Assembly (NCBI GenBank): GCA_019057385.1
Contig: JAHQJS010000006.1
Coordinates: 613,038 to 677,037 of the forward strand
DNA: 64,000 nucleotides
Origin: Candidatus Borrarchaeum weybense
GTDB taxonomy: Archaea > Asgardarchaeota > Sifarchaeia > Borrarchaeales > Borrarchaeaceae
Direction of reading: 5' to 3'
The notes beneath the pieces were generated by a model. The model saw only the letters and a program-made list of their open reading frames with translations, had not been told where the DNA came from and ran no database searches. Shown one piece after another: positions 13,195-35,624 of this stretch; position 1 is the stretch's first letter; every line of letters starts with the position of its first letter. Position numbers and translations under genes: made by a program.

Positions 13195-13227
13195 CTACCT
13201 ACCTCACGATAACTGTCAATAGTTAAA

Positions 13228-13887: not shown

Positions 13888-13945
13888 TTTTCTCCATTTT
13901 TTCTGTTTCTAATTACTTAGGTAGTTTGGATCAATGAGGCACAAT

Positions 13946-15187: not shown

Positions 15188-15216
15188 AGATTATAAGCCC
15201 CCACTATCACTATTGG

Positions 15217-15948: not shown

Positions 15949-16012
15949 TTTTTTTCAAATTACTTAAGTAGTCGGGTACGGTTCAGATAAGGCACAAAAA
16001 AGCGTGCTAAAC

Positions 16013-19731: not shown

Positions 19732-20220
19732 TTAATACTGTAGCTCGAGATTTACTTTTAAATCCCTTATTATTTTTAGATTTTCAAGTGTGTTGTCGTT
19801 AAATTCGTGGATTACCGCTATCTGTTTCGCTCGATTTTTTTCATTCTCTTCTGTAGCAAGTACTTTGAGAATTGCCTCTATTTCTTTCATATTTTTTGCA
19901 ATAACACGGAAATACGGCTTAAGTTCCTTAGAAGCAACACCTTTTACTTGTTCCTCACTACTTACGTAATATTCTAATCGTTTTTTACCTCTTTCAGTTA
20001 TAATGTACTCGTATATCGGTTTCTTGCTTTCTTCAATGTGTTTTTTATCACGATCGACAAGCCCTTGTCTATAGCACCGAAGTAGTATCACACAAACCAA
20101 CTCCCGGTCCTTCCCTAAGGCATCACTTATCACCTTTGATGTGTTGTTTCCTTTACTTACTTCCTTCAATATTCTTTGTTTGACTTCAGAGAAGCCTGTA
20201 AGCGTTTTTGACATATTCAT
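19732..20220 (-). CDS. Winged-helix transcription regulator
   Basis: ISDALGKDRELVCVILLRCYRQGLVDR...YIITERG; divergent from operon 1. Confidence 0.8.
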   Translation of the reverse strand: MNMSKTLTGFSEVKQRILKEVSKGNNTSKVISDALGKDRELVCVILLRCYRQGLVDRDKKHIEESKKPIYEYIITERGKKRLEYYVSSEEQVKGVASKELKPYFRVIAKNMKEIEAILKVLATEENEKNRAKQIAVIHEFNDNTLENLKIIRDLKVNLELQY

Positions 20221-20320: not shown

Positions 20321-20336
20321 CACAAAATATATATAA
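20321..20336 (+). promoter_or_regulatory. Probable promoter of operon 1 (CACAAAATATATA)
   Basis: BRE/TATA-like; same 13-mer at 26341. Confidence 0.65.
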
Positions 20337-20426
20337 AAGTAGTGACATTGTTTCTATTAACAAGCTTTGAAGGATGGTGATGTATGGATACGTTAGTAGC
20401 TAAGTCGCTGTGTTCAATCGGGCGCG

Positions 20427-20450
20427 TAGTCGCATAGTCGCATAGTCGCG
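20427..20450 (+). repeat. (TAGTCGCA)x3 octamer array
   Basis: Tandem octamers; also at 21062-21085 and degenerate at 26646-26669. Confidence 0.9.
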
Positions 20451-20527
20451 CAGTTTTTGGACGCACCCACCCCACCAAATAGGACGGGCAAGAGCTATTC
20501 TACTTGTTAAAGACAACGTCAATTGAT

Positions 20528-20600
20528 GGAGCTTATACCATCAACTCAACTCCTGGAGAGCCAACTTATACTTGGGGGGTCACACCCCCCGAGCTCCACC
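20528..20600 (+). ncRNA. tRNA-like element 1 (acceptor stem plus T-arm mimic, no clear D or anticodon arm)
   Basis: GGAGCTT (20528) pairs with GAGCTCC (20591-97), followed by ACC; GGGGG-7 nt-CCCCC arm directly before; tRNA-sized. Confidence 0.6.
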
Positions 20601-20645
20601 CTTAAAAAATTCACTTTTGTATATGGAGCTCATGCTCAGGAGTTT

Positions 20646-20966
20646 ATGAAATTGTATTTGTGTTCTAAATGTGGAACAACTCGCCACACACCCAATTTAT
20701 TTGAAGGTAAACCATACTGTCGTAAGTGTTACAAAAAAGTGATTCAGAAGCCAAAAGGTTGTTCTATCCCTTTAGGGATACCCCCTAAAAATAGAGGTAA
20801 CTATCGAAAAAGTCAGGGTTTACGTAAAAGAAGAATCTGGCGAGTAGTCAGAAATCAATCTGGTGAGATTATAGAAGAAGAGAGAATACCAAACCGCAAA
20901 GGACGTTTTAACCGTCATATCTCTCTAAATATGAAGGATAAACTCACCCCTCAACCCAATCATTAA
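20646..20966 (+). CDS. Zinc-finger protein with basic tail (start revised from 20523)
   Basis: CSKC...PYCRKC; leader motif and AGGAG precede ATG 20646. Confidence 0.7.
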   Translation: MKLYLCSKCGTTRHTPNLFEGKPYCRKCYKKVIQKPKGCSIPLGIPPKNRGNYRKSQGLRKRRIWRVVRNQSGEIIEEERIPNRKGRFNRHISLNMKDKLTPQPNH

Positions 20967-21002
20967 TCTTTTTTTTGTGGAGCTTGGCTCTAAGGTGGCT
21001 AA

Positions 21003-21080
21003 ATGAACCAAAGAGTAATTCTTGAGACCTTACTGAATTTCATTACTCTTGTTGTGGCTATTAGTCGCATAGTCGCATAG
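21003..21080 (+). CDS. 25-aa hydrophobic peptide MNQRVILETLLNFITLVVAISRIVA
   Basis: Preceded by a leader and RBS identical to those of the 23392 gene. Confidence 0.5.
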   Translation: MNQRVILETLLNFITLVVAISRIVA

Positions 21081-21085
21081 TCGCA
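21062..21085 (+). repeat. (TAGTCGCA)x3 octamer array
   Basis: Three exact tandem copies upstream of MCM. Confidence 0.9.
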
Positions 21086-21302
21086 CAAAAAGGAGAGATA
21101 CACCTTGCAAGACAAATTTAATAAGAAAAACGTAACTCTCCGCCTTGTCTTGTGGTATTTTGCAATACACCAAGACGCGAGACTACTAAACTTTGTGGTC
21201 GCGGCGTAATTTGTTCAAGACTACTTAAGTACTTAGGTACATAGGTATCGTCATACCTAAGTAGTCCTCTTTTTTGGAGCTCTAAGGCTCTGGAGTGAAA
21301 TT

Positions 21303-23045
21303 ATGACTGAAGCAATAGAAGAAGCCACAAATCCTGAAAAGGAATGGCTAAAAACTTTAGTTCGAGCGGATTTTGAAAAAACTAAAGAGGATGAAGAACT
21401 TAAACTAAAACCCATAACCTCAGGGATACAATCACTAATCCTTGAATTCTACCAGCGGTTATCCTCGACAGATACACCAGACGAATTCGATCAGTTTTAC
21501 AGTGAAAGACTGAAACAGTATAAAGCAATGCATTTGTTCATCAGTTTCCTTAATGAATATGCGGTTAAATTGGGGTTATCTCCCCGACCAACGGCACCAG
21601 AGTTTTACAGGAATTCACAAGAAGTAGAAAAGTATCTCTTTGAGATTACTGAAGCTACTCTCGGAGAACCACAGACACTTAAAACCTTGCAAGATCAGAT
21701 CAGTGCAAAATATCCCGATCTACTCAGTCAAATCATTAAAAATGAAATTGACAAAACGAACGGGAAATATGAAGATTTTGTCAACAACGAAATGACAGAG
21801 ATTGAGGAGAAAATTGATTTAGGGGTCGAAATAGAACTTGATCCCGTCATCAGTAAACAATTGCAATTAATCGAGGAATCTAAGGGAAAAATTCAGCAAA
21901 TTTCAGCAGAATTAAACAAGATGATTATTCTCGGTGAAACGGTATGGGAATATCTCATCTATGCAATGGTGAGCCCGCACTGCCCACCCTTTTACATCAA
22001 TGGTCTTAAAAAACGTGCTAATTTGCACGTACTTCTGGTGGGCGATATTTCTACAGCAAAGTCAGAAATCATCGACGTTACTGATGAAATAGCCTTTAAG
22101 AGTTTTAAAATAGACGATAGCACACGCGCCGCTATGGAAGGAAAATATACTACTGAAGGAATCGAAGCTGGGGTTATCGACCATGCTAACAATGGCTTGC
22201 TCTGTATTCACGAATTCGATAAAGCCTTGAAGGAGTTTAAATTACTCCGAAGGTGTCTCGATTGCAGAGATTTTACAATTGCGAAAGGCGAGCACATGAA
22301 AATCACTAACATCAACATGACACTTTTCTGTGGAGCCAACCCAACCGATGATTTTTTCCATAAAGAATGTTATCGGGATCAGATCCCCTTTTCAGAGGGG
22401 CTTCTGAGCAGGTTTGATATAACATTGCCCCTCCAATCTACCCCACTACGTAATAACCTCATGCTTGATCGTTTAGACCTCTTTTCCGAAGATAAAATCG
22501 TTGATATTACAAAAACCAAAGAAATCTTAGCAACTTTAATTCATGGCATACAGAAACTCAAAGGCGTTAAAATCGAACAAGAACACCAAAAAATGATAAA
22601 AGAAGTCTTTCGTCTGTATAACATTCGTTTACCACGCCGCCCCTTTGTAATCCTTCGAGACCTCGAAACCATTGCCCGATTTGTCAATGTAATAGCGTCT
22701 GCCAACTTTTATAATAGACAGGTAAAAGACGGCTACGTGTATGCTATAAAAGAGGACATTGAGAAAGCAATTTCCCTATGGGAGGACTTAATGCACCGCC
22801 GCCGACAACTGTACGAAGAAACAGGCGCAAAGAAAGAATTGACAAGCATTGATGACATAATCAAGAAAGAAATCATCATGCACGGTAAAGACCACATTAA
22901 AAGTACGGATCTTTATGAGATAATCGTGGAAAAACTCCATATATGTCACAAAGCGACCTTCTATAGAGCACTAAATCGCATGGAAGCGCAGGGAAAAATA
23001 CAACGTAAAGGCAGGAAAAACGCAACAATCATCCTCAACTCCTAA
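21303..23045 (+). CDS. mcm: MCM-family helicase, divergent
   Basis: HVLLVGDISTAKS (Walker A), LCIHEFDK (Walker B variant), GANP, LLSRFD, RDLE, C-terminal wHTH. Confidence 0.85.
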   Translation: MTEAIEEATNPEKEWLKTLVRADFEKTKEDEELKLKPITSGIQSLILEFYQRLSSTDTPDEFDQFYSERLKQYKAMHLFISFLNEYAVKLGLSPRPTAPEFYRNSQEVEKYLFEITEATLGEPQTLKTLQDQISAKYPDLLSQIIKNEIDKTNGKYEDFVNNEMTEIEEKIDLGVEIELDPVISKQLQLIEESKGKIQQISAELNKMIILGETVWEYLIYAMVSPHCPPFYINGLKKRANLHVLLVGDISTAKSEIIDVTDEIAFKSFKIDDSTRAAMEGKYTTEGIEAGVIDHANNGLLCIHEFDKALKEFKLLRRCLDCRDFTIAKGEHMKITNINMTLFCGANPTDDFFHKECYRDQIPFSEGLLSRFDITLPLQSTPLRNNLMLDRLDLFSEDKIVDITKTKEILATLIHGIQKLKGVKIEQEHQKMIKEVFRLYNIRLPRRPFVILRDLETIARFVNVIASANFYNRQVKDGYVYAIKEDIEKAISLWEDLMHRRRQLYEETGAKKELTSIDDIIKKEIIMHGKDHIKSTDLYEIIVEKLHICHKATFYRALNRMEAQGKIQRKGRKNATIILNS

Positions 23046-23140
23046 TTTTTTTCTCATTACTTAAGTACTTGTAAATGGAGCTTACTTCCAGGAGTAATAT
23101 TTTTAACATAGTCACTACAAAAGTATATACGGTGTTTATA

Positions 23141-23356
23141 TTGATCGAAAAAAAGAAAGTTTATAGATCAGGCAACTCAAAAGCCGTCCTCATACCCGCC
23201 TCTACATTTAAAGCGATGGAGAAACCCGATAAGGTATCAGTTGCTTTTAACGAGGTTATGATAGTTTTTAATGAGGATATGGACATTGAGATGATTAAAT
23301 CTGACATCTTAAACCTTCTCAAGTCAATAGAACTGCGTTATGGGAAGGTTACATAA
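23141..23356 (+). CDS. AbrB/MazE-like protein (start revised from 23075)
   Basis: KKVYRSGNSKAVLIPA. Confidence 0.75.
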   Translation: MIEKKKVYRSGNSKAVLIPASTFKAMEKPDKVSVAFNEVMIVFNEDMDIEMIKSDILNLLKSIELRYGKVT

Positions 23357-23391
23357 TTCTTTTTTGTGGAGCTTGGCTCTAAGGTGGATTT

Positions 23392-23646
23392 ATGGTAATT
23401 AAAGGCGAAGCGCAAACCATGCACCAAGCATGGCAAAAAGCCTTTGTGAATCTCGAAGAAACTATTAAAGAACGAGAAGTCGAACTTAAAAGACTACAAA
23501 CGGCTAAAAAAGAATGTCAGAAAAAACTCACAAAGGCGAATAAACAAACGGTTCTTGAACTAATTGAGACACGAATTGATTACTTACAGAAAAAACTCGA
23601 AAGCGAGAGAAGTATGCTCAATAGTTTAGAACCTTACAACTCTTAA
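23392..23646 (+). CDS. Coiled-coil hypothetical protein
   Basis: Leader motif and RBS; heptad pattern. Confidence 0.75.
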   Translation: MVIKGEAQTMHQAWQKAFVNLEETIKEREVELKRLQTAKKECQKKLTKANKQTVLELIETRIDYLQKKLESERSMLNSLEPYNS

Positions 23647-23692
23647 CCTTTTTTTCCCTTCTTGTGGAGCTATAAGGCTCTGGAGTGAAAAC

Positions 23693-24184
23693 ATGACCTT
23701 AGAATACAAAGGGTTTTTTAAAAACGTAAACTACGAACCCGAAAAGGGAGATTGGATCGAGGTTTTTGCAAGCGATTGGAACAAAGACTATTGGGCATTC
23801 TACGCATACATTCCATTCGAGAACTATGAACAAGGAATTCAAGTGATCAATGACTTGATCGGCGAATTGAATTGGCGAGACGGGGACGTATATATTGAGT
23901 TAATTAATATGAGTCCTGGTCTTGAAAAATTGTATAACAAACTCTACGATGACGGCTATTTTGCTCATTGGTCGGCTCTTAATCCCGACAAATGGCGCGA
24001 ATATTTAGAGGAAATCGAAGAGGAAGAAGCCGAAGAATTTTCCGACTTCAAAGATCAATATTTTAGGAAAAACTGTCAAACAAAATCAATTGAAGAGTGC
24101 GATGAAACGTCTTGCAATGAATCTTGTATAGATGAATGGGCGTATCCTCAACGACCAGATCCATCCCTGTATTACGACCAATAA
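23693..24184 (+). CDS. Acidic hypothetical protein with Cys-rich tail
   Basis: Leader motif and RBS. Confidence 0.75.
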   Translation: MTLEYKGFFKNVNYEPEKGDWIEVFASDWNKDYWAFYAYIPFENYEQGIQVINDLIGELNWRDGDVYIELINMSPGLEKLYNKLYDDGYFAHWSALNPDKWREYLEEIEEEEAEEFSDFKDQYFRKNCQTKSIEECDETSCNESCIDEWAYPQRPDPSLYYDQ

Positions 24185-24229
24185 ATCTCCACCTTTTTTT
24201 TCTTTCATGGAGCTAACAAAGGCTCAGGA

Positions 24230-24619
24230 GTGTTTACTATGAATGTCGAAATCAATTCTTTCGCGGATCTTATATACGTCCTATCTGAATTCGCAAAAGT
24301 TGATAAAAACTACGAATGGCACGTCAGTGAAGACGATGAACGTGTGTATTTAACACATTTCAGATGTGAAACTTCAGAAGCACCAGAATATTTTGTAAAT
24401 GACAGGAAACAAGACTTCAAAAAGTTGTGGGACACCGCATATCAGTACACCTTACGGTGTGCGACTTCTAAGGAAGAACCGAGTTTTGAGGCTCTTTGTA
24501 ATGCGATAAAGAAACAGAACATCGAAATCAGAACGTCGACGGATGAGGAACGGCTTTCCTATGTAGATCGAATCACTGAAATGGACGCTAATATGGAAGA
24601 AGAACTTGCTATGGAGTGA
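24230..24619 (+). CDS. Acidic hypothetical protein
   Basis: Leader motif and RBS; likely start at ATG 24239. Confidence 0.75.
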   Translation: MFTMNVEINSFADLIYVLSEFAKVDKNYEWHVSEDDERVYLTHFRCETSEAPEYFVNDRKQDFKKLWDTAYQYTLRCATSKEEPSFEALCNAIKKQNIEIRTSTDEERLSYVDRITEMDANMEEELAME

Positions 24620-24641
24620 AGATCAGAATTAGGGTGTTTAC

Positions 24642-24776
24642 ATGACAGAAGAACGCGAATTTAGTGTATTTGTCATCTTAAGAAAGATGGCGACAGACCG
24701 CCAAGACGCTTTAGATAAAGTAGATCAGGACATACTCGATAAAGATTTCGAAATTTACGATGTCATTGAATCTTAA
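24642..24776 (+). CDS. 44-aa acidic protein MTEEREFSVFVILRK...
   Basis: GGGTG RBS, open frame, fills the gap between neighbours. Confidence 0.55.
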   Translation: MTEEREFSVFVILRKMATDRQDALDKVDQDILDKDFEIYDVIES

Positions 24777-24869
24777 ACGAGACTACTTAGGTAATTAGGT
24801 ACTTAGGTAATTCCAAACATCTCCTATTTTTTTATGTGTGGAGCTTCAAAAGGCTCTGGAGTGAACAAT

Positions 24870-25814
24870 ATGGTACAAATCAAATTTGATAGTGCAAAAC
24901 TTTGGTCTTCTCTTGTGAAGGGTGTAAATGCTCTCATAAAAGAAGCCGAATTTGAGACCACTAAAGAAGGACTACATCTTCGAGCAATTGATGACGCGCA
25001 CATTGCCATGATCGACTTGGACATACCAAGCGATTCTATGAAAGAATACTCTTTTACTCTTCATGACAAAGAGGCAGACTTCGCGAAATTCGGCATAAAT
25101 ATTACTGAAATGGCTACAATAATGCGACGTATCCCCATTGGAGAAAAATTGACGCTGACATTGGATTCACAAAAAAGCAAATTTCATGTCGTAGCAGACT
25201 CTTTATACACAAAACGACGATTTTCAATTCCTCTCCTAGGTTCAACTTCCGCTGAAGACATTCCTGTACCGAAGATAGACTTTACAACAAAAATCAAACT
25301 TAAAGCAAAGTACCTCAAAGAGGCAATTAAAGACGCCGCTGTGATGGGTGACTATTTAAAACTCAAGACGACTGCCGATAAATTTTCTTTATGGGCAGAA
25401 GGCGATACAGGAAACGTCAGCATAGACTATGAATATGGAGAATCAATCTCTCTTGAGAAACGCGGTGACGCTGTTGGAATTTATGCTTTAAAGTACTTAG
25501 ACGATATGACCGATCCTATCCCTGGCGAATCTGAGGTAAGTATTGAGTTCTCAAATGATATGCCTCTGAAACTTACGTGGATGTTAAACGGCTCAAAACT
25601 AGATTACTACTTAGCTCCACGTATTCCACCCTCGGATGAAGAACCACCAAAAAAAGAGGAAAAGGAACAAGAAAAAACTAAGGATGACACAGAAGAGGAA
25701 AAAGAAACGCACGAAGAAACTAAGGAATTCCCTTGTGACGAGTGCGGAAAGACCTTTACTAGCCAAAGAGGACTTAACACACACATGCGCGTACATAAAG
25801 ACTCTGATGAATAG
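24870..25814 (+). CDS. pcn: PCNA sliding clamp fused to an acidic linker and C2H2 zinc finger
   Basis: GLHLRAIDDAHIAMIDL, YALKYL, DMPLKL, YYLAPRI, then CDECGKTFTSQRGLNTHMRVH; start revised from 24834. Confidence 0.92.
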   Translation: MVQIKFDSAKLWSSLVKGVNALIKEAEFETTKEGLHLRAIDDAHIAMIDLDIPSDSMKEYSFTLHDKEADFAKFGINITEMATIMRRIPIGEKLTLTLDSQKSKFHVVADSLYTKRRFSIPLLGSTSAEDIPVPKIDFTTKIKLKAKYLKEAIKDAAVMGDYLKLKTTADKFSLWAEGDTGNVSIDYEYGESISLEKRGDAVGIYALKYLDDMTDPIPGESEVSIEFSNDMPLKLTWMLNGSKLDYYLAPRIPPSDEEPPKKEEKEQEKTKDDTEEEKETHEETKEFPCDECGKTFTSQRGLNTHMRVHKDSDE

Positions 25815-25883
25815 TCCTTCCTCTATTTTTTCTCGTTACTTAAGTAATTTTTTAAGGAGCTTCTGACTCCAGGGTGTATTTAC

Positions 25884-26168
25884 ATGAACGGATGGAAAAA
25901 AATATGGGATACCGAAGAAAAAGGACTCTACAAAGACAATTCTTTCTCGTTCGTTGATTTTGAGAAAGAGGACTTATATCTATTGATACAAAAGTCTGGT
26001 CCGAGTGGTTGGTATCTTTATTTATTTGAACACGGTAGCCCAAGAACTGTTGGATGGGCTACTACAAAAGAAAAAGCCTTAGAGATAGCTAAGTTTATGA
26101 TGGAAACAGATAATTTCCCACCAGCACATAAGTACTTCAATGCGGATCTTGAACTTTGTAAGTCCTAA
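25884..26168 (+). CDS. Hypothetical protein
   Basis: Leader motif and RBS. Confidence 0.75.
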   Translation: MNGWKKIWDTEEKGLYKDNSFSFVDFEKEDLYLLIQKSGPSGWYLYLFEHGSPRTVGWATTKEKALEIAKFMMETDNFPPAHKYFNADLELCKS

Positions 26169-26231
26169 CATCCTTTTTTTCTAATTCTGTCTGCAAAGTG
26201 CTGCAGGGGCTCAAACCTCCAGGATCAGAAT

Positions 26232-26319
26232 TTGTTATTACAATTCAGGCCCTTACTTTCATTTTGTTATCACATTTGTAATAACATTCTACACCCGGCA
26301 ACTTATTTTGTGATGACAA
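26232..26319. promoter_or_regulatory. Operator array, four TTGTNATNACAA-type boxes upstream of the operon 2 promoter
   Basis: Boxes at 26232, 26264, 26276, 26308; reverse complement matches the 5926-5981 layout. Confidence 0.8.
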
Positions 26320-26340
26320 ATTATAACCTAATAACTGAGA

Positions 26341-26353
26341 CACAAAATATATA
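26341..26353 (+). promoter_or_regulatory. Probable promoter of operon 2 (CACAAAATATATA)
   Basis: Identical to the 13-mer at 20321. Confidence 0.65.
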
Positions 26354-26376
26354 ATTGAGTTCTTATAATGTAGTTC

Positions 26377-26625
26377 ATGAGACACACACGAAATACATCT
26401 ACAAGGTCGCACCCTTGCTGACCTATTATGTCTCAGAAAAGGAAGGGTCTCCTGCCGCGGGAGTTTGAAACGTCACTCACTTCCCTCCGTGAGTAAGCGG
26501 GCGTGGTCACGACTCGAAATGTGGGTAAAAGTCGTGTAGTGAAGTCAGTGAAACAGAAAACTCATAAAAAGAAAAAACCCTCCTGAGGTAGAAGAACGGG
26601 GGTTCGATTCCCCCAAGCTCCTCCC
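26377..26625 (+). ncRNA. Structured leader RNA ending in a canonical T-arm and acceptor 3' strand (tRNA-like element 2)
   Basis: GGGGG-TTCGATT-CCCCC (26598-614) then AAGCTCC (26615-21); hairpins TGAGACA/TGTCTCA, ACTCAC/GTGAGT, CACGACT/AGTCGTG; possible cis 5' strand GGAGTTT at 26460. Confidence 0.65.
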
Positions 26626-26748
26626 TCAAAAATTAAAGACTAGCGTAGCCGCATAGTCATATAGTCGCAAATATTATTTATACGTGGAGCTTAATAAATT
26701 TAATGGAACGGGAGTTTTTACTTCAGAACTACTTAGGTAGTGCGAAAT

Positions 26749-27690
26749 ATGTCCTTAGTGCACTTTTTGCAGAAAAACCCTGACTACCTCTCAGGTGTCA
26801 GAAGAATCCTCGAATATGAAGAGGACCATAAAGACGATCAGTATTTCAAGGACTTAGGGTGGTCTTGGGATGATATTAGACTTTCAGGACCACACTTGAA
26901 TCAGTTAGTTTTGGCGGGAATAATTCAAATTGTGTATAAATCCCGCAAGAATCGCGGCTATTTGTTAGTAGATCGAGAAAAAACAAAGAAAGAGATCGAA
27001 CTATACGAAGCACAATTAAATTATAGTCCAGAGACAGACGAAGAGATTGAATTCTCAGAATCTATCTTTGATGACATTATAGGCTATAACGATGTGAAAA
27101 AACTCTTTAAACGGGCGTTGCGGAGTGAAGAACCGATACATATCCTCATGATTGGACCACCCGCCAGCGCAAAGAGTATGTTTCTTTTTTGTCTTGCACG
27201 TTTAGATGGGGCTCATTATTCTCTTGGCTCATCGAGTACCAAAAGCGGATTATCTGATTTTCTTATTGAGTATTCTCCGCGCATATTATTGATCGACGAG
27301 TTGGACAAAATGAACACACCTGACTACTCCGTACTGCTCTCCTTATGTGAGAGTGGACTTGTGGGAGAAACAAAATACAAGAGAGTACGAAGTGTTCAGT
27401 TGAAATGTTCTGTATTCGCGGCTGCCAATGATGACAAAAAAATTCCGCGAGAAGTTAAAAGTCGATTTATTGCACTTCGATTTAAGGAGTATTCAAAAGC
27501 AGATTTTATAGAAACTGCCGTAAAACTTCTTATGCGGGAAGGAAAAGACCATGACTTAGCCACCTATATCGCTGAAAAAGTATGGCACTTTAAAAACCGC
27601 GATATAAGAGACTGCATACAGATAAGCCGCTTAGGAGATACACAAGAAGAGATCGACTCAACCCTGAAAACACTTCAGAAGTATTCGTGA
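26749..27690 (+). CDS. AAA+ ATPase (MCM/RuvB-like) with N-terminal wHTH
   Basis: HILMIGPPASAKS, LLIDELDKM, AAAN, SRF. Confidence 0.85.
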   Translation: MSLVHFLQKNPDYLSGVRRILEYEEDHKDDQYFKDLGWSWDDIRLSGPHLNQLVLAGIIQIVYKSRKNRGYLLVDREKTKKEIELYEAQLNYSPETDEEIEFSESIFDDIIGYNDVKKLFKRALRSEEPIHILMIGPPASAKSMFLFCLARLDGAHYSLGSSSTKSGLSDFLIEYSPRILLIDELDKMNTPDYSVLLSLCESGLVGETKYKRVRSVQLKCSVFAAANDDKKIPREVKSRFIALRFKEYSKADFIETAVKLLMREGKDHDLATYIAEKVWHFKNRDIRDCIQISRLGDTQEEIDSTLKTLQKYS

Positions 27691-27742
27691 GTACCTAAGT
27701 ACTCATGTTTGTTTTATTTTTTCTTTTCATGGAGCTTCAATC

Positions 27743-29461
27743 ATGAAGGCTCTACCACAAACAGGAGGAATTCAAATTTCGTGGATACATGAATTTTTTG
27801 AGAAATATCGTGCCCAAATAACACCCCTCAGTATCACACATTTCAATATCGAGGATTTCCCGCAACTTTTTACTGCAAAAGTAAATGGGAAAACTCTTCC
27901 TGGATATTTTGAATTCGTAATTGAGTATGATATTGGATCGGGGTTATGTCCTTTTGAACCACAAAAAACAGACTCTGAACAACTTACAACAGATGAAGAC
28001 AGCTCTGAACAAATTACAATGACCGACAAACTACGTCAAGAATATGCGAAGTTTATACAGTCAGACGAAGTTTATGAACTACCTGTTGATCCCGTAGAAA
28101 CGCTGAACTTTATCCGCTATTTATTCCGCGAATATAAGGGGCTTTTTGTTCTTTATGATTGCGAAACAATAGCACCTGACAGTTCGGCGGCACACATGAC
28201 GCTACAGGATCGTCAATGTTCGCAACTACTTAAAAATTTAGCATTAGACCACAAAATTCGCAAAAAAGGAAGCGCAATCATAGTGACTGCCGAGAGGCTT
28301 GAGGATATTGCCCAAAAAGTCCGAAAGGTAGCTAATATCATTGAAATTCCGCTTCCTGACGATACATCACGAAAGAAAGTGTTTGAACAAGCAACTGAAA
28401 AAGTCGCTTATAATCCTAAGGACTTGGATCAATGGGTAGTCGGATCGAAAGGTTTGACAATCAAAGAACTTAAGTCGATCATAGTTGAACTTTATCAGAA
28501 AGACACCACAATTATGTTAGGTGACTTCTATGATCAAAAAGCGAAAAAGTTAGAGAAGTACGACATGGTCTCTTTAGAGAATCCAAAGTTCGGATTCGAG
28601 GGCTTAGTTCTACCAGACTACTTAAGTACTTTCCTTAAGACCTTCATAATAAAGCCATATCAACAAGCTATGCAAATTCGTCCAAAAGGGATCTTGTTCA
28701 CAGGACCACCAGGCACAGGGAAATCAGTGTTGGCGGAAGTAATAGCCTACGAACTTAACAGACCGTTGATTACCGTTGACGCAAGTAATTTACTCTCTCA
28801 ATATGTCGGGGAGAGTGAGAAACGGACTGCTCAATTTTTCCGAGTAATCAGACAATTTGGTGAGGCAGTTGTCCTTATTGATGAAGCCGAAGAATTACTC
28901 AGCGAGCGATCTACAGCAGTCAACACTGATAGCGGTGTGACATCCAATTTGAAGGCAACCTTTCTTCATGAAATGGCGAGAGATCATGGAGTATTGTTTA
29001 TACTCAATACTAATTATCCAATGAAACTCGATGCTGCCATGGTTCGTGTGGGCAGAATTAATTACAAAATACCACTTTTGCCACCATTTACCGCTGAAGA
29101 ACGGGCTAAAATACTTCGTGTGGTGTTAGATGTTCAATTAAAAGTCCCATACGATAAGAACATAGATTTTGAAGCAATTGCCGCAACACTTCAGGGATAC
29201 ACAGGCGCAGAATTACGAGAATTAGCAAGTGTAGCATGGGCTATTGCTTGTGTTGAAAATGACAAAGAAAAAACCGAGCAGGAAGATTTTGATGTCGCAA
29301 AAACGGTGTTTCTACCCGATACGCGAAAGATCAAAGAAATGACCGCCGACGCACTTTCAGTAGTGAATGACAAAAGGCTTTTGCCGCCACAACTCCACAA
29401 AGAAAAAGAAAAGAAGGTTCAAGAGTTTCAAGAAGGCACTTGGGATTCACTCTTTCAATAA
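27743..29461 (+). CDS. AAA ATPase, Ycf46/Cdc48-like (degenerate N-terminal plus active C-terminal AAA)
   Basis: GILFTGPPGTGKS, YVGESEK, VLIDEAE, LDAAMVRVGR; true start may be ATT 27776. Confidence 0.88.
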   Translation: MKALPQTGGIQISWIHEFFEKYRAQITPLSITHFNIEDFPQLFTAKVNGKTLPGYFEFVIEYDIGSGLCPFEPQKTDSEQLTTDEDSSEQITMTDKLRQEYAKFIQSDEVYELPVDPVETLNFIRYLFREYKGLFVLYDCETIAPDSSAAHMTLQDRQCSQLLKNLALDHKIRKKGSAIIVTAERLEDIAQKVRKVANIIEIPLPDDTSRKKVFEQATEKVAYNPKDLDQWVVGSKGLTIKELKSIIVELYQKDTTIMLGDFYDQKAKKLEKYDMVSLENPKFGFEGLVLPDYLSTFLKTFIIKPYQQAMQIRPKGILFTGPPGTGKSVLAEVIAYELNRPLITVDASNLLSQYVGESEKRTAQFFRVIRQFGEAVVLIDEAEELLSERSTAVNTDSGVTSNLKATFLHEMARDHGVLFILNTNYPMKLDAAMVRVGRINYKIPLLPPFTAEERAKILRVVLDVQLKVPYDKNIDFEAIAATLQGYTGAELRELASVAWAIACVENDKEKTEQEDFDVAKTVFLPDTRKIKEMTADALSVVNDKRLLPPQLHKEKEKKVQEFQEGTWDSLFQ

Positions 29462-29558
29462 TTTCCTCTTTTTTTTCTTTATCACTACTTAGGTAATTGT
29501 GTTCATTTTTAGAGGGGCTTCTTCTCCAGGAAGCTACTAACTTTAATGAGGAAAAAAG

Positions 29559-30059
29559 TTGAGTAAATATCTCGAAGTAAAAACTCAATTCAAAAGTATG
29601 GCACATCTTATCGAGGCATTAACATCAATCTATGGCTACGGTACAGTCAAAGCGGGTAAAAATTTACCTCTCAAGGATTATCTTGGCAATATACGACCAG
29701 AAAAGGCAGATATCGTAGTACCAAGACGCTTCATTCATCCAGCGTCAAACGATCTTGGATTCAAGAAAAATGAAAACGGTGTTTATACCATGATTATCTC
29801 AGAATTTGACGAAGTAGTAGCATCAATGACTCCCCAAAGACTCGCTAATGAACTTAATTTGTATGGTCCGCCATATTCGACTCAATGCAAAGGAATTCCG
29901 AATACTGAGATAAAGAAACAATACAATCTCAGTTTTATCAGAGACTTTGCCAAGAAAAACCGTTGGAATCTGTCATTGACAGACAAAGAAACTCATTTTG
30001 AAGTTCGTTTGAAACGAAGAGTGACTGTTTCCGCAAAAGCAAGGAGGTCTGCCAGATGA
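29559..30059 (+). CDS. DUF1257 (Ycf35)-like protein
   Basis: MSKYLEVKTQFK...LIEAL...ADIVV...NDLGFKKNENGVY; follows a Ycf46-like ATPase. Confidence 0.75.
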   Translation: MSKYLEVKTQFKSMAHLIEALTSIYGYGTVKAGKNLPLKDYLGNIRPEKADIVVPRRFIHPASNDLGFKKNENGVYTMIISEFDEVVASMTPQRLANELNLYGPPYSTQCKGIPNTEIKKQYNLSFIRDFAKKNRWNLSLTDKETHFEVRLKRRVTVSAKARRSAR

Positions 30060-30262
30060 CACAAGAAGAGCAGATCTTCTTCAAAATCGACAAAAAGACA
30101 GGTAACTTGACAATCGAAGGCAAAGGATTCGAAGGACCGATCTGTGAAGACGTTTTAAAGTCATTTGAAGAGTTAGGAGAGATAACACATGACAAAAGAA
30201 CACCAGAGTACTATAAAAAACCTCGACAAGTCCAAACAACCCGCCAACGACTTAGACATTAA
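30056..30262 (+). CDS. DUF2997-like protein
   Basis: GKGFEGPIC...EELG...TPEYY. Confidence 0.75.
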   Translation: MTQEEQIFFKIDKKTGNLTIEGKGFEGPICEDVLKSFEELGEITHDKRTPEYYKKPRQVQTTRQRLRH

Positions 30263-30448
30263 AATAAAAACAATAATTCGCATTGAGGACGATGGAACAG
30301 TCATTTTTTGCGATATTCCAACTGAGTTAATCCCTTTAGCCTTAGCATTGCGGGGCGATTAATTTCTCTTTTTTTTCTTATTATTTAGGTAATTCGTTAG
30401 GATGGAGCTTCTTCGTTGAGAGGCTACCAACTTCAGGAGAAAACCAAG

Positions 30449-31591
30449 ATGTCAGATACGAAAAACATTTCCATTTCTGTTAATGAAATGGATGTTCTTC
30501 TGAATGGTCAACGAATAGATCTTCATATCTCGTCAGGAGATATGTTTAGTCAATCTAAGTTGAATAAATTGCTCTACAAAGGATATAAAAGGCTTTCATC
30601 AACAATGGTGAAAACTTATACAAACGGCGATACTCTCACGCTTGATTCAATCAAGACAAAAGCACATGAACTAAGGCAGAAATACTGTTTCAGGTTATTT
30701 GAAAACAGCGTTGAAGACAACAGAGGGGCTGTATATTTTTGTCCCGAGTCTCTGACCGAAAAGTTGCGCAAAGACCTACGGGAACTCAAAAAGGAATATA
30801 AAAAGACACTTGAGTTTATTGGCAAAATCAGAGATACTTTGAATGAAGAAATCTTTAGTTTTTACAGTGAGCATTGTATTTATTGCGGGCGACCTGTGAA
30901 AGAAGAAAAGGCGGGAAAGATCATAAAATTGCGATGCACAGGCGATGATTCGCATATATTCACTAAAAAACTCATGGATCATTGGTTAGAACAAAATAAG
31001 TCGGTGATAGAAGTACCCTCGTTAGAGGAGATTAAAGCGCGAAAGAGATTTTATTATCGCTTCAGCAAATATTTTTTCCCCACTGAAGAACTCACTGACA
31101 ACTTAGTTGATACACAACTTAAACAGCAAAAGCAAAAAATGTATCAGGCAGAATTATCTACATGCAAGTCTGCAATAAAAAAACAGTTATGGCAAAAGAT
31201 GAAGTTAATCCTTGAATACATAGATGATCGGCTTTCAAAAAGAGAAAAACTTCGTGCAGACCAACTTGATAAAATCAAGAATGATTTAGATGCATTAGAA
31301 GAACTAAATAAAAGCACCTTCAAAATTCCTCAGATTTCTAATTCTATAGACAATCTCAATGCACAGATTGCAGACAAAGAAGCTGCACTGAAAGTTTTGA
31401 CAAACATCTCGAAGAACATCGAAAAGAAAATCAAAGAAGCTGAAGAAAATGAAAATATTGCGATGGATCTAATAGACAAATTAGAGGACATCGACATAGA
31501 AATTGGTACAGAAACGCTTGAACTAGAACAAAAAGAAGCAGTTGAAATTGAACTTGGTGACCAGAAAGAAGAGATTTTTTCTACAAATTAG
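30449..31591 (+). CDS. Coiled-coil protein with zinc-ribbon insert (possibly DUF3150-like)
   Basis: GAVYFCPE, CIYC...C..H; start revised to the ATG after AGGAG. Confidence 0.7.
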   Translation: MSDTKNISISVNEMDVLLNGQRIDLHISSGDMFSQSKLNKLLYKGYKRLSSTMVKTYTNGDTLTLDSIKTKAHELRQKYCFRLFENSVEDNRGAVYFCPESLTEKLRKDLRELKKEYKKTLEFIGKIRDTLNEEIFSFYSEHCIYCGRPVKEEKAGKIIKLRCTGDDSHIFTKKLMDHWLEQNKSVIEVPSLEEIKARKRFYYRFSKYFFPTEELTDNLVDTQLKQQKQKMYQAELSTCKSAIKKQLWQKMKLILEYIDDRLSKREKLRADQLDKIKNDLDALEELNKSTFKIPQISNSIDNLNAQIADKEAALKVLTNISKNIEKKIKEAEENENIAMDLIDKLEDIDIEIGTETLELEQKEAVEIELGDQKEEIFSTN

Positions 31592-31682
31592 TTTAAATCA
31601 AATCTTAGTACCTAGGTACTAAGAAATATTTTTCAATTTTTTATTTTTATGTGGGGCTTCATGGCTCAGGGGTGAACAAACT

Positions 31683-31880
31683 ATGCCTATAGATTCATGG
31701 CAAGAGTTCATTGAAACGATCAAAGGGCTTCTAATTGGTTGCGGTATAGATATTATTATTGTGTCTTTCTATATTCCAGAAGTCCGCAATGATCTCAATT
31801 ATTGGGTTCTCACACCAATACTCATCATCTTAGACTTTCTTGTGCGCTTTGTGAGAACCTTTTTTATTTTTTTATTATGA
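31683..31880 (+). CDS. Small two-TM protein
   Basis: Leader motif and GGGGTG RBS; hydrophobic. Confidence 0.7.
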   Translation: MPIDSWQEFIETIKGLLIGCGIDIIIVSFYIPEVRNDLNYWVLTPILIILDFLVRFVRTFFIFLL

Positions 31881-31930
31881 GGGGCTTCTTCTCCAGGAAG
31901 AACGCTACCAACTTTTTGTGAGGGATTAAT

Positions 31931-32221
31931 ATAAGACAACGAAAAAAGATTCAACTTCTGAGGGTCTCTCCAGTCACACGAATGAGACTTGTCAAAAAGT
32001 TCTTGAGAGAAAACGCGCCTACCGCGTTCACAGCACAAGAGTTAGCAATGGAGTTCAATGTTTCCGTGTCGCTAATGAGGAATATTTTAGTTCCACTTTT
32101 CATGGATAACGATGAAATCGAACGCTTAAGTGAGAAACGCTTTTACAAGTATAAATGCGTTGAAAAAACGACAGAAGGACAAGAACCCGAAACACAAGAA
32201 GAAGTAATCACGACTACTTAA
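31931..32221 (+). CDS. Small winged-helix protein (probable ATA start; ATG at 31982)
   Basis: FTAQELAMEFNVSVSLMRNIL; stop codon lies inside TACTTAAGTA. Confidence 0.7.
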   Translation: MRQRKKIQLLRVSPVTRMRLVKKFLRENAPTAFTAQELAMEFNVSVSLMRNILVPLFMDNDEIERLSEKRFYKYKCVEKTTEGQEPETQEEVITTT

Positions 32222-32547
32222 GTACTGACGTAAGTTCCACCCGAAAGATAAGTTCGTGTGGAAATAGACGTATATCTTTTAGCACGTTCGCAGAAATAAT
32301 ATTCTCCTTAGTTTTTATGGGCGAGTGGACTCATACCTAACTCCCTATTATTTCGACTGGAGACCTATTTTTTAGGTTTTGTGTATTACTTTTTAAGTAT
32401 CAAGAACTAATCCCTTATTTTTTCTTTTTCTCATCGGTTGTTAATTGCATTTTGGGAGATCGTAGAGGAGAGAGGAGATAAGAGAGTAAAATAAGTGAGG
32501 GGCTTTTCCCATTGTGGGATTGGCTACTAAAATCAGGAGGAAACGCT

Positions 32548-32838
32548 ATGGCAACACAAATTGAAGTTCCAAAATCCATGAATATATGGATGCGTATAGA
32601 CGTTGCGTGTTGTGCAGACTTAACGAAAGAAGAAAACAAGTGTGCAATGTGCGGAGAATCTGATAAACGTCTCGCGGTGTTCGAGTTTAGGACAACGAGG
32701 CATCATGGACACATTGACGACAAAGGATCTTCCTGGAATATTCCTTCGAGGGGCTTAATCTGTGAAGGATGTTCTAACGAGATCGAAATAGAGATCGTAC
32801 AAGTGCTCAAGAAGTATCTGTGGCAAAAGGAGGACTAA
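32548..32838 (+). CDS. Zinc-finger protein
   Basis: CAMC...ICEGC; AGGAGG RBS. Confidence 0.7.
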   Translation: MATQIEVPKSMNIWMRIDVACCADLTKEENKCAMCGESDKRLAVFEFRTTRHHGHIDDKGSSWNIPSRGLICEGCSNEIEIEIVQVLKKYLWQKED

Positions 32839-33389
32839 CATTGCCGATGATGAGTTTTACTGAATACAAGTTGCTACCAAATCTACTGCTGAGAACGAAA
32901 TGTCAAACCATTCGACCAGAACGACTGAAATGGGACTTACATGTGGGTGACTTGGTCCATAATTACTGGGAGGTACGTCGCTCACTTGAAACAAAAATAA
33001 TTGCCGGGATTCCACACTTCTTAGGATTCTCACAGATTACATCGTTGTCCAAAAAACGAATTAAAGACATGGATGATGAAATAGCGAAGAAAGATGGCTT
33101 CAGTTCTTACAATGAGATGATAGAGTGGTTTACAAACAAGTACAAAAGAAGGTTTGGCGAACTCTACTTATTAGACATCCCTTTTCAGATTATTGAGTTC
33201 GACTGGTTACACGTCTTCATACCTGAATGGCAACACTATACGAGAGAAAAAATCTGGGAACTAAGACGCAAACACGTCAAGAAGAATAAGAAAGGCGGAG
33301 GCTACGTCTTTGTAGAAGAACCTACGCTGGAGGTCAAGATCAACAAAAGACCCACGCCATATAGCGGCGGCTACCCCATTCCGTTTTAA
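32820..33389 (+). CDS. ASCH (PUA-like) domain protein
   Basis: KCQTIR...VGD...IAKKDGFSSYNEMIEWF. Confidence 0.8.
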   Translation: MAKGGLTLPMMSFTEYKLLPNLLLRTKCQTIRPERLKWDLHVGDLVHNYWEVRRSLETKIIAGIPHFLGFSQITSLSKKRIKDMDDEIAKKDGFSSYNEMIEWFTNKYKRRFGELYLLDIPFQIIEFDWLHVFIPEWQHYTREKIWELRRKHVKKNKKGGGYVFVEEPTLEVKINKRPTPYSGGYPIPF

Positions 33390-33402
33390 AGTGGTGAACA
33401 CA

Positions 33403-33564
33403 ATGCGACAAAGACGAATAACCGAACTATATGCCACCCCTATCCAAGTAAAAGAACCATGCCCCATTTGTGGGGGTCGATTCATACCTGGATTTGCAAT
33501 GTGGTGGCCTCATACCCCACAAATACTGATTTGTACCTCGTGTTGTTTCATAAAGAACCTATAA
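33403..33564 (+). CDS. 53-aa zinc-ribbon protein
   Basis: GGTGA RBS; CPICGG...CTSC. Confidence 0.6.
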   Translation: MRQRRITELYATPIQVKEPCPICGGRFIPGFAMWWPHTPQILICTSCCFIKNL

Positions 33565-33676
33565 TCCCTTTTTTTATTTTTTAATGAATATTCGTGACTA
33601 CTTAGGTAATTTCGTTCATTTTTAGAGGGGCTTCTTCTCCAGGAAGCTACTAATTTTCCCAGGAGGAAAATACACG

Positions 33677-35488
33677 GTGACTAAGATAAACGAGTCATTT
33701 AGACAAACGATTCGTAGGGCTATAAAAATAAAAATAGAGACAGAGAAAATCGACAAAGAAGAAGGCTTACCACAGACATTTGACAAAGTGCCTTACAAGT
33801 TCTTAAATGCGCTTTTAGACCTAAAACTGCCACCAGACCGACCTTTCATCTGGAAAGAAAACGAATCGAATTTACATTTGTACCCTTTCTTATTTGAGAA
33901 AGGACAGTTATCCATTGCTGGCCTTCGATGTCTGACGCTTATTGATGAATACATGAACTGTAAGACCGTACAGAAACCTAAAAAACTCAGAACTATTAAA
34001 ACAAGTCTTTTTTATAATATGTTCAAACCACTACTAAGTAGATTTGGACTGCTAACACCAAAACGGCTGACTACGAAGTGGACAGAAAATCAGTACAGTG
34101 CTGTGACGGGTACACTGAGCCAATTAGTTATGCTTGGTGCTTTAGGGATCAACTATGATGACATGATGATTAATAAGGACACCGACGTTAAATACCGCCT
34201 AGACTATCCTATATTTCGAGAGAAATACAAGGATAACGTAGTAAAGTACACTAAATTAACGGGGAGAAATTTTTGTGTGCTTACACCAGAGCACCTACAG
34301 AAGCCTTCGACACGGCAACCATTCAAAATACCAATAGTCTTCCTAGAAAAACGCGGTCAGTATGAAAACGCAATCAGCATAAGCAATCTATTCTCAGTCA
34401 GCATGTTTGCTACCAAAGGCATGTCACCGACCACTTTCCTGTGTCATCTTAATGAATACTTAGATGACCAGTATGACCATGTGCTGTTAGTAATTAGTGA
34501 CTACGACCCCAGTGGTGAAAAAGACATACCAAATTCATTGAAAAAACGCGCTGAAATTCTTGAAATGCCTATCAGTGAAGTTAAAAGGATAGGTATTTTC
34601 AGAGATCAAATAAGCGATAAAGAATATCTGGAAAAGAGAGTTCTTATACCTCTCTCAAAGAAAAAATGGATAGAAGAAAAAGCCATTGAGACTGAAGAAA
34701 TTGTTGAAAATAAGAAAACACATCTCTATGGGTACGGACTTCAAATGGATGCACTAGGCGAAGAACGGTTGCGGAAAATAGCAGCCGAAGGAGTACAAGA
34801 ATATTTATCACAGGAACTATATGTAGACTTCATTAAACAACAACAAAGAGATGAATTTAATGCATGGGAAGTTGTAAGTGGCATCGCAACATATATTTAC
34901 AACGTCGATCCTGTCATAGTTAATTTTGAAAGACAAATCACAGGAATCAAACACAGAATCTACAATCTGACAGACGAAAAAGATGAGAAGACATTAGATA
35001 TTAGATTAGCAGTGGAGAGCATAGAAGACGAACTACAACGACTTAAAGATGATTATTACTCAAAAATAGAACGTCTTAATGAACTTGCAGATGAAAGAAC
35101 TGCTGATTTAACTGTAGACATAGAAGTGCTGCGTGAAAAGAAACAAGAAAGAGTAGTGATGTCTGAAGAACATAAATACGACCTACAGGAACGTCTAAAA
35201 ATGATTGTAAAAACGCTTGCAAATATAGACGGGTATGATGACCGTATATGTGTAAAATCTATGGTAGAACAGGCTGTCAAAGACAATGAAACATTTAATC
35301 ATGGTCTTAAAATCGTAGACTTATATCCAAAACTAAAAAGTGACATTTCCAGAGACTTCAATCATCCTAACATCTGTCCATTTTGTAATACCGTATCTAA
35401 CTGTTATCTTGTGATAGACGGAAAACAAATACGGTATTGTGAAGACTGTGATACTGAAATCATAAAACTTAGTGATCTGTTAGCCTAA
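33677..35488 (+). CDS. Topo VI-A/JetD-like TOPRIM protein with coiled coil and C-terminal zinc ribbon
   Basis: VFLEK, TKG, SDYDPSG, KRIGI, QMDAL; CPFC...CEDC. Confidence 0.78.
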   Translation: MTKINESFRQTIRRAIKIKIETEKIDKEEGLPQTFDKVPYKFLNALLDLKLPPDRPFIWKENESNLHLYPFLFEKGQLSIAGLRCLTLIDEYMNCKTVQKPKKLRTIKTSLFYNMFKPLLSRFGLLTPKRLTTKWTENQYSAVTGTLSQLVMLGALGINYDDMMINKDTDVKYRLDYPIFREKYKDNVVKYTKLTGRNFCVLTPEHLQKPSTRQPFKIPIVFLEKRGQYENAISISNLFSVSMFATKGMSPTTFLCHLNEYLDDQYDHVLLVISDYDPSGEKDIPNSLKKRAEILEMPISEVKRIGIFRDQISDKEYLEKRVLIPLSKKKWIEEKAIETEEIVENKKTHLYGYGLQMDALGEERLRKIAAEGVQEYLSQELYVDFIKQQQRDEFNAWEVVSGIATYIYNVDPVIVNFERQITGIKHRIYNLTDEKDEKTLDIRLAVESIEDELQRLKDDYYSKIERLNELADERTADLTVDIEVLREKKQERVVMSEEHKYDLQERLKMIVKTLANIDGYDDRICVKSMVEQAVKDNETFNHGLKIVDLYPKLKSDISRDFNHPNICPFCNTVSNCYLVIDGKQIRYCEDCDTEIIKLSDLLA

Positions 35489-35624
35489 GTACACAGATCA
35501 CATTTTGTATTTCCTTCTTTTTTTCCATATCTAACTACCTAAGTATTTTTGATTATTTTTGGAGGGGCTTATCTCCTGCTCTACAATTACAGGAGAAGGT
35601 CACTAATCTCCCAGGAGGAATACT

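Follow-up and report, generated by a model that had tools for sequence, protein, structure and literature searches.

A repeated leader cassette and inverted anti-leader modules in the replication block of an integrated archaeal mobile element

Viruses and mobile elements place copies of a stereotyped promoter or leader cassette before genes that belong to one expression class. In bacteria, 5' untranslated regions can sequester ribosome sites, and leaders can pair in alternative ways. To our knowledge, almost nothing is known about how gene expression is organized in the mobile elements of Asgard-type archaeal hosts. Here we describe a short leader cassette that precedes most genes in the DNA-replication block (positions 20321-35624) of a mobile element integrated in the genome of Candidatus Borrarchaeum weybense (4.18 Mb in 8 contigs). 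Positions refer to the 64,000-nucleotide (nt) stretch that was analyzed – C6:613038-677037, hereafter the window. We know of no earlier description of the leader motif.

Ways of punctuating transcripts and of assembling tRNA-like structures from separate pieces also bear on this locus. Ojala et al. are said to have described tRNA punctuation of mitochondrial transcripts in 1981, Forster and Altman to have described external guide sequences for RNase P in 1990, and Randau et al. (in 2005) and Chan, Cozen and Lowe (in 2011) to have described split and permuted archaeal tRNA genes. In plant mitochondria, t-elements are contiguous acceptor/T-arm-like folds beside messenger RNA (mRNA) ends that recruit RNase P or RNase Z, and they were detected with mapped RNA ends (PMC1920247). 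U-tract-dependent termination has been shown in the archaeon Methanococcus and functional internal operon terminators have been described in archaea (PMC8716108, PMC10450193).

The cassette resembles those of viruses and mobile elements in that one short strand- and element-specific sequence stands before most genes of a module, is duplicated as a unit and is exchanged between genes. It differs from them in combining a T-tract, a constant 6-7 nt stem-loop box and a ribosome site, and in having inverted copies at the heads of the gene blocks. Compared with the aCPSF1/FttA U-tract terminators and internal operon terminators (PMC8716108, PMC10450193), it shares tracts of T5-T8 directly after stop codons in co-oriented arrays. 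Here, however, nearly every gap contains a tract, coupled to the constant box that follows.

A leader cassette before most genes of the block

Read 5' to 3', the cassette comprises a T-tract; the box (T/A)GGRGCU(Y), which forms the 5' arm of a short stem-loop by pairing with a partner a few nucleotides 3'; a Shine-Dalgarno site; and a start codon. We observed 25 plus-strand copies of GGRGCT within 20528-35564. Five are inside genes, which is about the chance level, while the remaining 20 fall in spacer, where 0.61 would be expected in the 2684 nt available between 20221 and 35624 (Poisson p ~1e-23). Only three matches are on the minus strand of the same range, including two pieces in the head regions that are described below. 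Between 20.2 and 35.7 kb of the window, GGRGCT is present in 18 of the 19 gaps of at least 29 nt, in 17 cases behind a T-tract, and the spacing from T-tract to box ranges from 0 to 11 nt. An initial annotation of this DNA had counted 20 such copies, all on the plus strand and mostly between a T-tract and a ribosome binding site, and these counts bear it out.

The pattern is also specific to the element. Matches to a T-tract followed by GGRGCT are concentrated in the window when the genome is scanned, and a fuller pattern (GGRGCT...CTCY...RGG) is matched 7 times in the window region, with 4 further, isolated matches in the rest of the genome. A minus-strand block of membrane and surface proteins in the same element (5999-16420) has a different upstream grammar – a palindrome, an A-rich stretch and ATG, with no GGRGCT leader – and the leader is thus specific to the replication block. 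Found before most genes of a module and specific to both strand and element, the sequence qualifies as a repeated leader cassette of a mobile element.

Two types of leader can be distinguished. Type A (13-14 copies) has (T)GGAGCU, then 3-12 nt, then GGCUCU, GCUC or CUCC, and ends in GGAGUGA or CAGGAG. Type B (6-7 copies) has (A)GGGGCUU followed by CUCC and/or AGGAAGCU. Two copies of a ~60-nt unit, at 29486 and 33599, each contain a palindrome, ATTTTTAGA and a leader of type B.

The box is engaged in local pairing. We folded 32 nt from G1, the first G of the box, in 19 leaders and compared the results with 300 shuffles of the tails. G1-G4 were all paired locally in 10 of the 19 minimum-energy folds, whereas shuffling gave 4.5 on average and never more than 9. 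The box is within a local helix in 17 of 19 leaders (-2.7 to -12 kcal/mol), and every leader except 26686 has a cis partner that competes for GGRG. The sequence of this partner varies among leaders (GGCUCU, GCUC, CUCC, GGCUaCC or AGGAAGCU), and the stems contain G-U pairs (G1-U and U6-G for type A, G3-U for type B). Because of these G-U pairs, the local helix makes sense only in sense-strand RNA. Position 3 of the box is always A or G, which the initial annotation had attributed to pairing with a U in a tRNA-like acceptor strand encoded upstream. Such pairs can indeed form, but R3 also faces a U in each leader's own hairpin, which explains the A/G-only rule without a partner in trans.

Strain variants recovered via protein clusters (L032/L033, L034, L036 and L037, ~94-96% identical; L035, 98.7%) cover 11 leaders, and GGRGCT is unchanged in all of them. 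A strain change in the leader at 20979 and both changes in the leader at 24209 are in the loop, while a variant C to U opposite G1 at 30404 keeps the pair. At 23666, one strain contig (L036) has exchanged both the partner and the ribosome site (GGCTCT/GGAGTG to CTCC/AGGAA) and has kept the T-tract, GGAGCT and a partner. Since the leaders have cis partners that are kept or swapped in variants, pairing in trans is unnecessary to explain either R3 or the box.

All leaders are on the plus strand. From the first gene of block 1 onward, type A leaders are at 20625-20645 (leader 1, before that first gene), 20979-21002, 21276-21302 (before the MCM gene, with a 6-bp local hairpin that includes two G-U pairs), 23077-23098 (start codon uncertain), 23368-23391 (in a 35-nt gap), 23666-23692, 24209-24238, 24840-24869 (before the PCNA-zinc-finger gene) and 25856-25883 (with CUCC as partner). 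An orphan leader with GGGGCT (26206-26231) stands ahead of the putative operator array of head 2, with no clear gene after it. The leader of the first gene of block 2 (26686-26748) alone lacks a strong local partner (-1.1 kcal/mol for its local fold). It is followed by type A leaders at 27731-27742 and 30404-30448 and by type B leaders at 29514-29558, 31653-31682, 31881-31981, 33627-33676 and 35564-35624. Among the latter, the leader at 29514 (GGGGCU) belongs to the first copy of the ~60-nt cassette and has an 8-bp local hairpin with AGGAAGCU as its 3' arm, that at 31881 abuts the preceding stop codon, that at 33627 belongs to the second copy, and that at 35564 is the last in the block. An atypical GGGGCT copy at 32499-32511 lacks a T-tract.

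Inverted leader copies in the two block heads

Each of the two head regions contains what we term an anti-leader module, encoded on the plus strand. Module 1 (20550-20609) comprises CUCCUG, a G6/C6 hairpin (20574-20590), GAGCUCC (20591-20597), ACCC and A6. Module 2 (26578-26632) comprises CCCUCCUG, a G5/C5 hairpin (26598-26614), AAGCUCC (26615-26621), UCCC and A5. The central pieces thus read GGGGGG-TCACA-CCCCCC followed by GAGCTCC-ACCC (piece 1, 20574-20601) and GGGGG-TTCGATT-CCCCC followed by AAGCTCC-TCCC (piece 2, 26598-26625). The initial annotation had located both arms and both 7-nt strands correctly, together with a 13-mer shared by the two heads, though it placed the arms at the start of the transcripts, and they are ~250-270 nt downstream of the TATA-like boxes. 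Its description of each arm as five G-C pairs closing a 7-nt loop fits piece 2; piece 1 can be drawn either as 6 bp with a 5-nt loop or as 5 bp with a 7-nt loop.

We found that the modules are inverted copies of leaders. The reverse complements of both align to whole leaders, including the T-tract, GGAGCT and the (C)CAGGAG ribosome-site box, and in this alignment the G/C hairpin is an insert in the leader loop. Scanning the minus strand of the window for a T-tract followed by GGRGCT identified exactly two sites, which are the two head pieces; a reading of these as leaders of minus-strand genes was rejected, as they are followed by frames of only 2 and 6 codons. The modules are also homologous to each other (CUCCUG, hairpin, RAGCUCC-WCCCUYAAAAA), so that their common geometry represents one evolutionary event rather than two coincidences. 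Since the modules are inverted leader copies, complementarity between their 7-nt acceptor-like strands and the leaders is expected. Alignment over the whole leader is predicted by an inverted-copy origin and not by a split tRNA.

Both heads share a triple of pairing partners, consisting of a GGAGYUU box upstream (20528, 26460), the RAGCUCC of the module and the first leader (20625, 26686). In head 1, the upstream GGAGCUU (20528-20534, plus strand) can pair with 20591-20597 in normal order, and the fold of 20528-20600 (-26.7 kcal/mol, z score -3.4) competes with a local 7-bp hairpin. In head 2, the upstream GGAGUUU (26460-26466, plus strand) can form seven pairs with 26615-26621 in normal order, including one U-G, and these are used in a fold of 26455-26625 with a z score of only -0.3. 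The modules pair with the first leaders as well, and module and first leader differ jointly between the heads, with G:C in head 1 and A:U in head 2. When 20520-20660 is folded, module 1 and the first leader are paired (-47.8 kcal/mol, z score -5.5), with ACUCCUG opposite the first gene's CAGGAGU and GAGCUCCA opposite UGGAGCUC in the minimum-energy structure. A 111-nt fold of head 2 pairs AAGCUCC, at seven of seven positions, with the GGAGCUU of leader 26686.

These arrangements recall the sequestering leaders of bacteria, in that an anti-Shine-Dalgarno CUCCUG can pair with the first gene's ribosome site and three mutually exclusive partners are present in both heads. They differ in that the host is archaeal, the folds of head 2 are not significant and no covariation is seen; a sequestering fold that engages the anti-Shine-Dalgarno was recovered in head 1 and not in head 2.

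The heads are strongly conserved. Against the 94-96% identical strains, the 158 nt of 20500-20657 show a single change, the final 144 nt being unaltered, while the flanks differ at 3-6%. The 296 nt of 26455-26750 show four changes, of which an A-rich linker accounts for two, while the flanks differ at 7-8%. Divergence of the heads is thus 0.6-1.4%, against roughly 3-8% in the flanks, and we predict that the heads are functional. Part of head 1 (20526-20645) is an open frame that some assemblies call as a 146-amino-acid protein, and it has no changes in the variants.

Other features of the heads are likewise on the plus strand. The 13-mer shared by the two is TATA-like (CACAAAATATATA; 20321-20333 at the head of block 1 and 26341-26353 at the head of block 2), as the initial annotation had noted; of its 4 occurrences genome-wide, these 2 occupy equivalent sites in the two heads. 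The copy in head 1 resembles the TTTAWAA boxes upstream of host tRNA genes, and the copy in head 2 has a strain variant with one A-to-T change that is still AT-rich. Three tandem 8-nt GCRTAGTC repeats lie upstream of module 1 (20424-20447) and three tandem 8-nt repeats of the same type – GCGTAGCC, GCATAGTC and ATATAGTC – lie downstream of module 2 (26643-26666). Both sets are invariant in strain variants and may be iterons or an array of binding sites for a protein. Four TTGTnATnACAA-like palindromes (26228-26319) stand immediately before the second TATA-like box, in an array of putative operator sites.

Explanations for the leaders and the head modules

Our favored explanation, which we hold with moderate confidence, combines a sense-strand RNA leader cassette with anti-leader modules in two long 5' regions. 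In archaea generally, the first genes of transcripts are often leaderless. Here a ribosome site stands before every gene, which suggests that the genes are internal to longer transcripts, and on these two grounds we infer two multi-gene transcription units. They would start ~25 nt after 20333 and 26353, from twin TATA-type promoters. Within each unit, the U-tract may serve as a leaky internal termination or 3'-end signal of graded strength. The stem-loop would mark the 5' side of the next cistron and protect it against 5'-to-3' decay, and it would also present the ribosome site and hold it open. In each head, the anti-leader would either pair with the upstream GGAGYUU box or mask the first leader, covering its box and, in block 1, its ribosome site; this alternative pairing could gate translation or processing of the first gene.

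Several observations weigh against this proposal. Longer folds of head 2 do not choose the module-leader pairing and have z scores near zero. The module-leader pairs are all Watson-Crick, which an inverted repeat acting at the DNA level fits equally, and the strains are too similar to show covariation. There is little excess of T-tracts in the host, where tracts of T5 or longer follow 35% of long open reading frames (ORFs) and tracts of A5 or longer follow 31%, and the terminator role consequently rests on other archaea. Finally, the box is more constant than its stem requires, which points to a sequence-specific reader – a protein, an RNA or the polymerase. When the small proteins of the block were searched against Pfam, PHROGs and Atlas, no candidate RNA nuclease or RNA-binding protein for this role emerged; an ASCH domain with a borderline score was the only RNA-linked match among them.

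A serious alternative, though we regard it as fairly unlikely, is that the signal acts in DNA. The T-tract and GGRGCT would then form an element-specific promoter or initiator, or a site for a DNA-binding protein, and the head modules would be inverted-repeat sites that surround either the first promoter or a replication origin beside the MCM-type genes. Many T-tracts do resemble weak TATA boxes, situated 27-36 nt upstream of type A start codons, but the sequence upstream of them is pyrimidine-rich whereas that before host TATA boxes is purine-rich. Moreover, the correctly spaced ribosome sites that follow nearly every box would be lost if transcription began ~25 nt after the T-tract. A DNA signal would accommodate a box that is invariant while its RNA partners vary, as well as duplication of the ~60-nt cassette (palindrome, ATTTTTAGA and GGGGCT) as a unit. 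It sits less easily with the variable spacing of the box from both the T-tract and the palindrome, and the G-U pairs of the local stems would be meaningless in DNA. In the heads, the Watson-Crick nature of the module-leader pairs, the iteron-like 8-nt repeats and the palindrome arrays all agree with a DNA-level role. GC skew gives no origin signal; it follows gene orientation only, and a replication origin was rejected on these grounds.

An unlikely possibility, and one that is compatible with the explanation we favor, is that leaders are translated. The type A box can be read as RUG-GAG-CU (Met/Val-Glu-Leu), which would open a mini-ORF of 3-18 codons, with reinitiation at the main start codon; mini-frames of the form RTG-GAG-CT are present in type A leaders between 20623 and 30419 of the window. 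NT precedes 13 of 14 GGAGCT copies, such that ATG, GTG or TTG ends at G1, though this T may be a mere part of the motif. In five type A leaders, which vary in length, the stop codon overlaps the main start (ATGA/TTGA). The corresponding frame at 29514 ends in the same way; this leader is of type B and, like others of its type, lacks a start codon at this position. Taken together, overlaps occur in 6 of 17 (binomial p ~0.0015 at our rough chance rate of 0.08), a hint of translational coupling. Three more stops are 4-7 nt into the main ORF, but two mini-ORFs stop after 3 codons, ~20 nt ahead of the gene. With no ribosome site before RUG, translation would need a leaderless 5' end, yet there is no TATA box at -26.

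The remaining explanations invoke tRNA-processing enzymes and depend on how closely the modules resemble tRNA. A T arm followed by a 7-nt acceptor strand is present at 26598-26621, where the UUCGAUU loop is a perfect, canonical T-loop (we estimate a chance of ~1 in 1000 for a random loop). At 20574-20597 the loop is UCACA, which does not fit the T-loop consensus (UUCRANY), and the canonical T-loop that the initial annotation noted in module 2 thus has no counterpart in module 1. ARAGORN identified no tRNA or transfer-messenger RNA (tmRNA) gene in the window, and Rfam searches gave no match at gathering score and, for tRNA, no match up to E = 10 in either head. The closest result was a match of module 2 to the permuted tmRNA model RF04321 (18.6 bits; gathering score 47; E 0.08), which covers only the T arm and acceptor; a match to RF00023 covers 18 nt. 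No T-loop followed by RAGCYCC was found in the host tRNAs or the rest of the genome, and by eye we saw neither D-arm pairing after the GGAGCTT at 26686 nor a bulge-helix-bulge junction. The NCCA tail of a tRNA is not present, and the tails ACCC and UCCC run into A-tracts inside a longer region.

Confined to the block heads, such processing could occur in cis. The G/C hairpin stacked on a 7-8 bp RAGCUCC/GGAG helix would form an acceptor/T-arm minihelix, which host RNase P and RNase Z would cut to free the mRNA body from its 5' region. Plant mitochondrial t-elements provide the precedent (PMC1920247), and module 2 shares with them a T-arm geometry stacked on a 7-bp helix. In contrast to t-elements, however, the helix here would come from distant or permuted strands, and one module has no T-loop. 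In both modules the hairpin abuts the 7-nt strand without a spacer, and both heads offer partners upstream (normal order) and downstream (permuted order); a fold of this type is possible in each, with the z scores given above. The double change between the heads maintains pairing with the first leader, and the host genome encodes a normal, full-length archaeal RNase P RNA. Against these points stand the missing T-loop of module 1, the want of a tRNA model match and of anything beyond a far-below-threshold tmRNA match, and the NCCC tails. In addition, the module complements the ribosome-site box, which a minihelix does not need, and as duplicates the two modules count only once as evidence of geometry. 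We consider this explanation very unlikely.

Processing in trans would extend the idea to every gene. The head modules could be natural guide RNAs released from the 5' region, in which the hairpin and RAGCUCC pair with each GGRGCU box and CUCCUG with its ribosome-site box, and RNase P/RNase Z or another structure-specific nuclease makes gene-sized mRNAs; we view this as highly improbable. The initial annotation had proposed that a head piece acts as the 3' half of a split tRNA mimic, in effect a natural external guide, on every leader, with RNase P and RNase Z cutting the polycistron at each gene. In silico, all 19 leaders can form 6-7 pairs with either piece (-9.7 to -14.8 kcal/mol), and as in external guides and split tRNAs, an acceptor-like 3' strand is able to pair with a 5' strand encoded apart from it; unlike those systems, however, the locus has neither a free NCCA nor a D or anticodon arm, and it matches no tRNA model. 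The claim that position 7 of the box tracks the operon, which would match the differing acceptor strands, stands as to its counts (T6/C3/A2 in operon 1 and T9 in operon 2; Fisher p = 0.038 in a post-hoc test), but T is the commonest residue in both operons. What survives of the proposed pairing is the complementarity and one double change, not the tRNA mimic, and the initial annotation is confirmed in its observation and supported in part in its interpretation. Although RNase P RNA is available in the host, a split-tRNA cutting system is not supported and appears highly improbable, since every point against the version in cis applies equally, a cis partner competes in all leaders but 26686, with type B leaders even supplying an AAGCU arm themselves, the complementarity follows from the inverted-copy origin, and the pieces are inside long RNAs with no sign of release.

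The element, its host and its relatives

The integrated element spans ~60 kb (window ~3500-63500) and is flanked by host ilvC (996-1970) and a tyrosine integrase (62309-63481). The whole of it is marked by a palindrome, TACYTARGTA, with ~45 copies at 4113-62094; genome-wide there are 96 copies, 80 of them within an 80-kb neighbourhood of the element. Often extended to TTCGTGACTACTTAGGTARTTAGGA, the palindrome is found mostly in gaps ahead of genes, on both strands, at a variable distance of 19-44 nt from the leader box. We identified no enrichment of it in 40 related genomes, and it probably serves as the operator for a dimeric regulator that the element encodes.

Plus-strand genes of the replication block include those for MCM (21303), PCNA fused to a C-terminal C2H2 zinc finger (24870-25814), a clamp-loader/MCM-like ATPase (26749), an AAA ATPase (27743) and a topoisomerase-like protein (33677); a DUF1257/DUF2997 pair and the ASCH protein also belong to the block. 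A winged-helix regulator (19732-20220) is divergent from it. The closest matches of the PCNA-zinc-finger protein are host PCNAs; it shares ~47% identity with the host's own PCNA (contig C8) and with those of the same genus, and the element may thus have captured its PCNA from the host lineage. Elsewhere the element encodes an Mrr-like nuclease (4237-5238), a type I/IIG restriction-modification pair (40782-44058), a serine recombinase (51196-51972) and a protein like the primase small subunit (60516-61526). No capsid or terminase gene was recognized in the ~60 kb, and no phage match was found. Direct repeats of at least 15 nt were not found at its ends. We rejected a reading of the head pieces as integration remnants, as there is neither a host tRNA with the same 3' half nor a pair of such repeats.

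The host is archaeal, with a small-subunit ribosomal RNA (rRNA) that matches the archaeal model over 2.7 kb with large insertions. Its 16S rRNA gene (G000:C5:332562-335234) is ~2.7 kb long against a 1.48-kb model, consistent with large insertions (introns), and a 133-nt tRNA lies upstream of it. Host tRNAs are intron-rich and have an encoded CCA. Unlike them, six tightly clustered tRNAs on contig C1 (19435-19896) have no introns and no encoded CCA; this cluster may be contamination (estimate 7%) or part of another mobile element. The wealth of introns in the 16S rRNA and tRNA genes, with a predicted pyrrolysine tRNA, suggests an Asgard-type host.

Homologues of the element's MCM are at most 41% identical and lack both motifs, and an MCM search of viral contigs returned no match. 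Scans of metagenome and viral contigs for the module pattern gave no matches, and scans for the leader pattern gave only scattered single chance matches in unrelated organisms. Three metagenome contigs that encode an MCM 34-39% identical to that of the element each have a repeated leader of their own before several genes. The first (L028) has a T-tract, CTTAA and then ACATAGTATAATATAGGTG; the second (L029) has CCTCTG, ~14 nt and then CAGAGGAA, with a hairpin that pairs CCUCUG with CAGAGG; and the third (L031) has a covarying hairpin and then GAGCAGGTGAAAAA. Repeated leaders thus appear to be a typical feature of such MCM/PCNA elements, each of which has a leader sequence of its own.

The leader box together with TACYTARGTA can be used as markers for this element in metagenomes. 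If the head modules did act as natural guides, they would represent split, trans-assembled tRNA punctuation in an archaeal mobile element, and guide-directed cleavage by RNase P would be the natural counterpart of a tool that has so far been confined to the laboratory. On the explanation we favor, one cassette before 18 genes and two ultra-conserved heads would make up a compact grammar for termination, mRNA protection and translation start.

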